Positions 52,801-55,800 of a stretch of DNA of 64,000 nt are shown here, one piece after another. The notes beneath the pieces are model-generated. The model saw only the letters and a list, made by a program, of their open reading frames with translations, did no database searches and was not told the DNA's origin. Numbering within the stretch: position 1 is the stretch's first letter; each line of letters opens with the position of its first letter. Origin of the DNA: Mustelus asterias (lineage: Eukaryota); assembly GCF_964213995.1 (NCBI RefSeq), contig NC_135820.1, forward strand, positions 61,628,001-61,692,000, written 5' to 3'. Made by a program: the position numbers and the translations under genes.

Positions 52801-55800
52801 TTCTGTTCCACTTAATTTATTTTGCTCTTATAGAAAAATTCCAATCATCTCCAAAATTATATTCTATTAAGTGTTTGAAAGAGTCACAGAATAGATTAAA
52901 TTCATGTTCATGATTTAATTCTAGTCGGAGAAACAGGGAAAGAACCACACAATTAATGCACGCATAGCGATTTGCTGGATTAGTAATCCAAGCTGATGCT
53001 CTGGGGACTGAGGTTTGAATCCGACCACGGCAGCTGGTGGAGTTTGAATAAGATGACGAAAAAAAATGAAACAATTGTCACCAATGTCCCTTTCGGGAAG
53101 GAAATCTTCTGGTCTACGTGTGACTCCAGTCCACAGCAATGAGGTTGGCTCTTAGATGGTGAATTAGAGATGGACAATAAATGCTGGTCAGTGCCCTCAA
53201 CATTCTGTCAATGAATTTTTCGAATACAGCACAGAAGGCGGCAACCTCCGCACAATGTCTTGCTTTTTAATCAGTCCCAATCCTCTTTCTCCATAACCCT
53301 GCGTATTTTTTTCTTTTGAAAGCTGCTATTGAATCTGCTTCCAACACCCTTTCAAGCAGTGCATTTCAAATTGTAACAACTCGCTGTGTAAAATAAATCT
53401 AATTTCTCATCAATTATTTAAAATCTGTGTCTTCTGGTTCCATGTGGAAGCAGTTTAGGCCCATAAGAGCATCAAAAGTACTGGTAATTATTTTATGCAC
53501 AGCTGCATTTGGCAGTGTGACTCATATCAAACAATAAAGGTCAGTTTTATTTTTACTAACAACTCCATATTGAGAAAACCACCTATAAAGCCTAATGAAT
53601 GTCGTAGAAAGTGGTACAGTGTAATCTCGATCAGATAAAGTTTGATCAAACTACCCTTGTAAGCATACAACAAATGAGTTTCACCAATGATTTTTAATTA
53701 ACAAAACTAATCTTCAAAAGTAGCTGATATAAACCTTCATAGAAACTCTACAATGGCCATTCGACTCATCGAGTCTGCACCGACCACAATCCCACCCAGC
53801 CCCTATCCCCATAGCCCCACGTATTTACCCTGCTAGTCCCTCTGACACCAAGGGGCAATTTAGCATGGCCAATCCACCTAAACCGCACATCTTTGGACTG
53901 TGAAAGGAAACCGGAGCACCCGAAGGGAACCCATGCAGACATGGGGAGAATGTGCAAACTCCACACAGACAGTGACCCAAGCCGGGGGAATCGAACCCGG
54001 GTCCCTGGCGCTGTGAAGCAGCAGTGCTAACCACTGTGCCGCCCGAGATAAGATATTTTTGGGGACAATTTTTCTGCATGTTGCACTTGCACGTATTTAT
54101 TCTCTGGGTATAAAACATTGGGAAAATAAAAAGCATTTAAAGCCTTTATAATGCCTGAAATTTTGAAAGGTCAGGCTCTAACCTCTAGGTTGATGACCAT
54201 AAAACTGTCATTGTTTTAAAAATCCATCTGGTTCACTAATGCCCTGAAGGGAAGGAATTCTGTCATCCTTACTTATCTGTGACTCCAGACCCACAGAAAT
54301 ATGGCTGACTCTTAACCGCCCTCTAAAATGGCCAAGCAAGCCACTCAGCTCAAGAGCAATAAGGGATGGACAACAAATGCAGGTCTTGCCAACGATGCCC
54401 ACATCCCATGAAAGAATAATCATAGAATCACAGAATCCCTGCAGTGCAGAAGGCGGCCATTTGGCCCATTGAGCCTGCACCAAGAACAATTCCACCCAGG
54501 CCCTACCCCCCGTAACCCTACATGTTTGCAACACTAATCCCCCAACACTAAGGACAATTTAGCATGGCCAATCCATCTAACTTGCATATCTTTAATAAAA
54601 GAAAAACTGTCCTTGTAATTGATCCCTTGGAATCCAGGTATCGTTCTGGTATGTCTGAATTTCTGATGTGGAGATGCCGGCGTTGGACTGGGGTAAGCAC
54701 AGTAAGAAGTCTCACAACACCAGGTTAAAGTCCAACAGGTTTATTTGGTAGCAAATACCATAAGCTTTCGGAGCACTGCTCCTTCGTCAGATGGACTGTG
54801 CACTGTTTGAGAGCAGATATCCACTCCATCTGACGAAGGAGCAGTGCTCCGAAAGCTTATGGTATTTGCTACCAAATAAACCTGTTGGACTTTAACCTGG
54901 TGTTGTGAGACTTCTTACATGTCTGAATTTGGCAGACATATGTTCCAGTAGTCAGAAATATTGCCCCAGTGTGAAAGTAACTTTAATTTGACTTCAACAT
55001 CTTTGGTAAGCAAAGTCAGCTGTTGTTTTTGCTTCATATTAGCATCCTCATTCCCCCTAATAGAAGTCTTTATTTGTGAAATTTGTGAAATTTATCTGTG
55101 ATGGCCATACAGCTACGCAGCCAACTGTCACCCATAAGCAGGGTCATATCTACAAAATAACTTGCAAAACCAGGAGAGATATTATCCAGCACCTATCCCT
55201 CCATGGGAGAGACTGCCTGAAAGAGAAGCAAGAGGAAAAGAAATCAGAAAGATTACTGGGAGAGAGGAAACCGTGGCTGCAATAGAAAATGTGCTACTTG
55301 CTCCATGGGTTGTACCTGCTATTTAGCTTATTTTGTAAAAGGACCAAAGAATGAATATTTTATAAGTGCAATCAGAGAAGCTAACCTTCAAATTGCTCCC
55401 AGGTAAGGTAGCAATGCCATCTTTCCATTCCAAAATGCTGGCCATGTCACATTTCTGTGCTCCAGTAATCTGTGGGCTGATTGCCGCAGTCACTGGCACG
55501 GCACTGTCTGACTGTTCCACTTCGACTGGCAAAGAAACACCTTGGCTTTCTCTGGGGAATCCCTGAGGCTTTCGATTACTCTCGGCTGTATTGACTGAAG
55601 TTATGTTTGAAAGAAAGCAGACAAGCAAAATCTGGCAACTTATGCATATATTATATTTAACCAGCTCACAACACATTTACATTACTTGACAACTACAAAA
55701 GTAACTTTGATAACAGTTGTTATATTGACAGTGAGTTATATCGATATCATAATGCGTTTGTCCTAACATAATTAGTATCAAATTTATAATAGTTACAAAC

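Follow-up and report, generated by a model that had tools for sequence, protein, structure and literature searches.

Introduction

EN+ Penelope-like elements (PLEs), as described in the available text of two accounts (PMC8557442, PMC3846280), leave insertions with head-to-head inverted pLTRs, a one-sided tail of 30–40 nt and a short TSD, and the ORF of the parent element combines an RT and a Cys-linker with a GIY-YIG domain at the C terminus. The insertion analysed here, from a window of 64 kb (the whole stretch of DNA that was analysed) of the shark Mustelus asterias, is alike in all of these respects; however, its arms are cut down to ~130 nt, no ORF is left in it, and stubs of its kind number in the thousands. 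TSDs in the shark family also centre on 12–13 bp, whereas those of the rotifer PLE examples available for comparison are 8–10 bp.

The pLTR of the shark element carries a hammerhead motif whose closest described counterparts are the min-HHRs of PMC4209133. In the portion of that source available to us, these share with the shark motif the core, an extra base between positions 9 and 10.1, the pair G10.1–C11.1, a palindromic 15.2–16.2, the lack of helix III and a helix I of 4 bp, and differ from it in helix II, which has 7–8 bp in Schistosoma versus 5 bp in the shark. The same text, which does not name sharks, notes opposite-strand min-HHR pairs 100–700 bp apart, describes low activity in vitro with no evidence of cleavage in vivo, and indicates that an isolated minimal hammerhead is not expected to cleave as a monomer (PMC4209133).

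Biochemical data come from the Poseidon element PAc of Anolis (Frangieh et al. 2024, PMC11167929), whose available text describes a PLE protein that in vitro nicks and extends both target strands, an RT that starts in vitro at two internal sites bounding the tail, and uncut RNA as the main template. The shark family appears to share all of these features. It differs from PAc, in which the ORF has its start in the hammerhead and contains the tail, in that the shark tail ends at the ATG. In addition, the Anolis RNA-seq described there contains no reads ending at the cut site, whereas shark genomic 5' ends pile up at that position (PMC11167929). Non-LTR retrozymes, in the part of the preprint available (bioRxiv 10.64898/2026.07.22.740005), are likewise PLE-derived, hammerhead-bearing and non-coding, but consist of head-to-tail tandem units, whereas the shark insert is a single head-to-head insertion.

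The layout of the insert and its hammerhead motif had already been published, and in itself the insertion is ordinary. In a literature search, neither shark PLE hammerheads nor 5' ends in genomic copies at a PLE hammerhead cut proved to be the subject of any paper.

Anatomy and Age of the Insertion

The insertion occupies positions 54651–54930 and is bounded by 12-bp TSDs at 54651–54662 and 54919–54930 (+ strand) that match exactly. Between them two pLTR arms lie head to head with a blunt junction at 54795/54796, the hammerhead motifs starting 31 nt apart. The left arm is inverted and tailed (54663–54795, − strand), is 5'-truncated one base before stem I, and includes at its outer end the 39-nt PLE tail (54663–54701, − strand), which constitutes the long 3' end. 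The right arm is direct and tail-less, with the short 3' end (54796–54918, + strand), and is 5'-truncated ~30 nt before stem I. A previous sequence-only reading had claimed a 94-bp inverted repeat with a 29-nt spacer and an exact 12-bp TSD, and all of these are present, the repeat (54702–54795 and 54825–54918) being perfect. The hairpin is not a product of chance (z = −28 versus shuffles), and a TSD of at least 8 nt arose by chance in only 0.9% of 2,756 mismatched flank pairs. The description of the insertion as palindromic in that reading is accurate for the repeat but not for the whole, which is asymmetric, the left arm being 39 nt longer owing to the PLE tail. Nor are the 29 nt (54796–54824, + strand) a mere spacer, as they are ordinary upstream pLTR of the right arm, and sister copies have this sequence ahead of their motif as well.

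A contig from a related species (run X3, record 9) represents the empty orthologous site, joining 54662 to 54936 with six letters between, and because it spans the site without the insert, the insertion is young and not conserved. Its youth, which had been proposed earlier, is also evident from the identity of the arms. The filled right junction is carried by run X1, which is possibly the assembly's own sample, and coverage of the site in runs X7 and X21 is thin. An abundant Penelope-like retrotransposon left this young, non-coding stub, both arms of which are truncated at their 5' ends.

The Parent Element

Copies in the genome were located by exact patterns, and an exact 48-nt piece of the arm has 3,926 occurrences. 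Longer copies extend 5' into an ORF in which an RT and a GIY-YIG-like domain are connected by a C-x4-C-x2-C linker, as represented by the copy L032, whose ORF matches RVT_1 over the cut-off (E 1e-9) and GIY-YIG just below the Pfam cut-off (E 4e-4 to 8e-4) and stops ~200 nt before the hammerhead motif. In another longer copy, L033, the 39-nt extension runs directly into the ATG of the ORF. This attachment of the pLTR to an RT/GIY-YIG-like ORF, reached by following genome copies of the arm as had been suggested as a check, bears out the Penelope-like origin proposed from the sequence alone. In the available text of PMC8557442, a CX2-5CxxC between RT and endonuclease defines the Neptune/Nematis clade, and by that linker criterion the parent, as judged from its predicted ORF, is a Neptune/Nematis-type PLE. 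The insert itself has what is expected of EN+ PLE insertions, namely an inverted 5'-truncated copy, a one-sided 39-nt tail and a short TSD.

Many TSDs at the long 3' end begin with bases that match the end of the element, which suggests short primer-template homology. Two other classes of element were considered and rejected: a MITE or DNA transposon on the basis of the 39-nt asymmetry of the ends and of junctions that differ among copies, and a non-LTR retrozyme on the basis that it needs at least two head-to-tail hammerhead units, whereas the two arms here are head to head.

The Hammerhead Motif

Each arm carries a minimal type I hammerhead motif, located on the + strand at 54826–54862, with a predicted cut between 54858 and 54859, and on the − strand, which is the sense strand of L3MBTL1, at 54758–54794, with a predicted cut between 54762 and 54761; these cut positions were derived from hammerhead numbering. 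The 37-nt motif has the order stem I, CUGAnGA, an extra A, stem II, GAAA, a palindromic AGCU and U17, and folding of the isolated motif predicts that both stem I (4 bp) and stem II (5 bp) form. Conservation was assessed in 106 distinct copies, which are related sequences rather than independent events and were parsed with a near-intact core as a requirement. Position 7 is free (C in 61, T in 29, A in 12 and G in 4), the remaining core positions are kept in 96–105 of the 106, and the extra A after A9 and the pair G10.1–C11.1 are found in 102 and 93 copies, respectively. The first pair of helix I is U-A in 49 of these related copies and C-G in 31, pair 3 of helix II is A-U in 81 and G-U in 22, and loop II is variable. 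Position 17 is U in 63, A in 32 and C in 11 copies, and never G. The published hallmarks, together with this covariation across copies, uphold the claim of a minimal hammerhead with core and stems I and II on both strands. An Infernal or RNAMotif search for hammerheads had been proposed as a check; in 53000–57000 no Rfam hammerhead family model matched at E ≤ 5. The miRNA matches that Rfam returned for this interval were all below thresholds, and were discounted as those models fit any long hairpin.

A self-complementary AAGCUU had been thought to replace helix III. The palindrome is present and helix III is absent, but the catalytic helix between two motifs would be the 4-nt AGCU; a 6-nt pairing would, by hammerhead numbering, join core A14 with U17. 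Two copies of the motif are needed for helix III to form. U17 triplets are poor hammerhead substrates, which counts against cleavage in vivo. Just 3' of the cut, in two subfamilies, lie hairpins (54859–54874 and 60217–60234) that are predicted to compete for the 3' strand of stem I, and could constitute an off switch of the ribozyme.

Truncated 5' Ends at the Predicted Cut

With position 1 as the first base of stem I, the predicted cut falls between positions 33 and 34 (+33/+34). We took the first 100 of 1,441 matches to a pattern that excluded the consensus at one position only, so that some classes of junction escape it; removal of 18 sequence variants left 82 truncations. Their last matching base was position 37 in 7, 36 in 3, 35 in 12, 34 in 36, 33 in 3, 32 in 3, 31 in 1, 30 in 2, 29 in 9 and 28 in 6. 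Within this ten-base window 36 of 82 ends are at the predicted cut, with position 35 also raised (12 of 82). Genome-wide counts, which compare positions 34 and 32 and leave positions just 3' of the cut outside, gave 466 versus 136 ends in the focal subfamily (A), with a pattern that excludes its commonest junction, and 1,148 versus 343 in subfamily B, which has a different stem I. The 3.3-fold excess in subfamily B is conservative because its control is inflated: AAAAG is read in about one third of the first 100 matches listed for it (hand count), and of 20 inspected by eye, at least 10 proved to be cut-site ends with an A-run or a duplication after them. In subfamily B, truncation is genuine in all 30 inspected copies, and in most of them the arm adjoins a partner that starts within a few bases.

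Sequence from upstream of the cut is rare in the partner arms (2 of 22, 0 of 26 and 1 of 27 in partly overlapping sets), versus 5 of 13 when arms end at 28–31, 3–6 nt further up. Pieces of the ORF start are found at 3 of 60 cut-site junctions, which indicates a template that continued past the tail, as the 3' cleavage product would. In three copies (L137, L140 and L154) the junction includes an insert that derives, in sense or antisense, from the initial 240 nt of the PLE ORF.

On balance, these genomic ends lead us to favour the interpretation that the minimal PLE hammerhead cleaves in vivo and that, in a minority of stubs, the RT ran off the 5' end of an already cleaved RNA. Published data that speak against this are the low activity of min-HHRs in vitro (PMC4209133) and the Anolis RNA-seq, in which no read ends at the site (PMC11167929). 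The chief alternative, to which we assign a modest probability, is that the pile-up comes not from ribozyme cleavage but from local structure, that is, the hairpin 3' of the cut and short microhomologies. In its favour, the RNA hairpin begins at 35 in subfamily A and at 34 in B, at most one base from the cut in both, and the commonest cut-site junction of A (16 of 36) uses a 2-nt microhomology, such that its true end could be anywhere in 34–36. A third subfamily, D, in which the hairpin is absent or different at that place, is without a clean peak even though its triplet is CUC/CUU, having ~12 of 61 ends at the cut (hand count), 8 of them via stem I microhomology. Against local structure, the peak persists in A without the commonest junction class (20 of 66, p = 4e-6 versus 1/10), and arms of B end at 34 whatever the start of the partner, mostly with 0–1 nt of homology, while the cDNA hairpin of B is predicted to be weak (−2.1 kcal/mol) and closes 8 nt short of the stop. 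Furthermore, the best microhomology available, an adjacent 6-nt palindrome 1–6 nt upstream, is the exact centre in none of the first 50 of 545 short palindromes, with one off by a base, whereas both arms lie at most one base from the cut in 17 of these 50 (hand count). An RNA hairpin, moreover, usually halts an RT on its 3' side.

An older copy in the window (26677–26798) has an antisense arm that stops at the cut site, where stem I sequence links it to the sense core, a junction type that accounts for 8 of the first 100 listed matches in the subfamily D count.

Upstream Cluster of 5' Ends

A second, larger cluster of 5' ends is located ~4–16 nt before stem I, at about −4 to −16, and may mark where transcription of the pLTR begins. 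In many palindromes the two arms both stop in this interval, also in variants without a local palindrome (L111–L125 and others). Splicing was rejected as a cause of this hot spot as the junctions share no exon-like sequence, and a cluster of ends at −692 proved to be artefactual, arising because the copy used as reference, L032, has a deletion. We consider it rather likely that priming at both target strands within the 5' pLTR gave rise to thousands of stubs, and that their synthesis ran off the 5' end of the RNA, which was either the start before stem I or the hammerhead cut.

Origin of the Head-to-Head Arms

The genome has at least 1,957 head-to-head pairs with motif starts 10–40 nt apart, and 538 with starts 41–70 nt apart. 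Arm ends were surveyed in 202 arms from 80 ten-kb stretches at the first exact matches on one contig (C1), plus the window; 84 of the arms are unpaired, some long ones through the deletion in L032. Their 3' ends are bimodal, falling at +93 to +97 (short) or at +129 (long). Among 59 inverted pairs, 53 combine a long and a short arm, 3 a long and an intermediate arm, 2 are short-short and 1 is long-long, and after dropping the three intermediate ends the proportion of long plus short is 53 of 56 (p = 8e-13). The 5' ends of the arms in the 53 pairs are correlated (rho 0.77) and lie within 10 nt of each other in 26, versus a permutation mean of 6.0; outside the hot spot the corresponding values are 11 of 27 and 2.4. 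An exact TSD of 8–16 bp flanks 48 of the 53 pairs, with a mode of 12–13 bp. Arm lengths are continuous, from stubs to kilobases of ORF.

The explanation as a whole that we regard as likely is that two target-primed cDNAs, one primed at each of the two cut ends, were joined head to head, and that the cut-site stubs came from ribozyme-cleaved RNA. A staggered nick of the target would provide two 3' ends, from which one cDNA would begin at the long site, ~+129, beside the ATG of the ORF, and the other at the short site, ~+93 to +97. Both cDNAs would halt early, probably on the same RNA, and then be end-joined. The focal copy would have been made from uncut RNA, because both of its arms read through the cut site.

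Alternatively, the inverted arm could be a single cDNA that folded back and copied itself, self-priming having been proposed from palindromic junctions in the available text of PMC3846280. The tight correlation of the arm ends would fit this, as would the more frequent presence of the tail on cut-site arms (23 versus 11 and 22 versus 8 in two sets). A tail-less cDNA, however, cannot supply a tail, yet the tail-less short arm reaches further 5' in 17 of the 53 pairs, as it does in the focal insert, versus 10 in which the long arm does so, although loss of central sequence by deletion once the insertion was in place could obscure which of the arms is the longer. Self-priming would require just such a later central deletion wherever the tail-less arm is the longer, and we regard it as improbable. 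That the palindrome moves independently, copied whole in the manner of a MITE or a retrozyme, is very improbable: thousands of palindromes are of like size and a few identical junctions recur, but junctions vary from copy to copy, arm lengths are continuous, the ends are asymmetric and there is no tandem array.

The Insertion in L3MBTL1

The insertion was said to lie in an intron of L3MBTL1 between coding exons 2 and 3, and our placement of the exons agrees. On the − strand, tblastn located the first coding exon at about 57482–57611, coding exon 2 at 55386–55594 and coding exon 3 from 52698 downward; all seven protein hits of exon 2 are to L3MBTL1, and the MBT domains are found within the 64-kb window. 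The host intron (52699–55385, − strand) is 2,687 nt long and has GT..AG ends. Other mobile sequence is present at the locus. A second inverted PLE insertion, of a subfamily with CAC/GTG in stem I, occupies 59667–60314 inside a LINE-like fragment, and consists of a short and a long arm, with a 12-bp TSD and an intact hammerhead motif on both strands. A mini inverted insertion in intron 1 (56614–56734), with a 13-bp TSD that has one mismatch, has arms that begin at or after the cut region and is without a ribozyme core. Fragments of LINE-type RT and endonuclease occur in L3MBTL1 introns at 14489–16067 and 30357–30827 of the window.

The full insert is predicted to form a hairpin of −194 kcal/mol, consistent with the claim that the ribozyme is masked by its own perfect antisense. 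The sequence-only reading had placed the antisense arm first on the minus strand specifically; because the arms are head to head, it is transcribed first on either strand. That this is a special or functional self-masked ribozyme of L3MBTL1 is not supported, given the abundance of like palindromes, masking that is independent of strand, and cutting by the monomer that is not expected. The ribozyme in the L3MBTL1 pre-mRNA is instead predicted to be an inert passenger, and its masking a by-product; we found no sign of a role for the insert in L3MBTL1. It is scarcely credible that the insertion acts on the gene as a conditional self-masked ribozyme or as a double-stranded RNA regulator, for although coding exon 2 ends only 468 nt upstream of it and a perfect 94-bp hairpin is expected in the pre-mRNA, it is absent from the related species and has at least 1,957 equivalents elsewhere in the genome, another such pair (59667–60314) lies upstream of the first coding exon at a distance of 2 kb, and the predicted pairing of the motif with its antisense (−75 kcal/mol) far outweighs that of the dimer helix (−2.5 to −4.3 kcal/mol).

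Conclusions

The statistics of this family bear on the origin of inverted pLTRs with a one-sided tail, and on whether minimal hammerheads, which are nearly inactive in vitro, cut in vivo. They name coordinates for the events concerned, placing the cut at +33/+34, the starts of RT close to +95 and +129, and another 5' end in the region of about −4 to −16. If our interpretation is correct, the thousands of stubs in the shark genome would represent a fossil end-map of Penelope RNA, those ending at the cut would be direct in vivo evidence of germline cleavage by a minimal PLE hammerhead, and the 3' cleavage product would serve as a template for integration.
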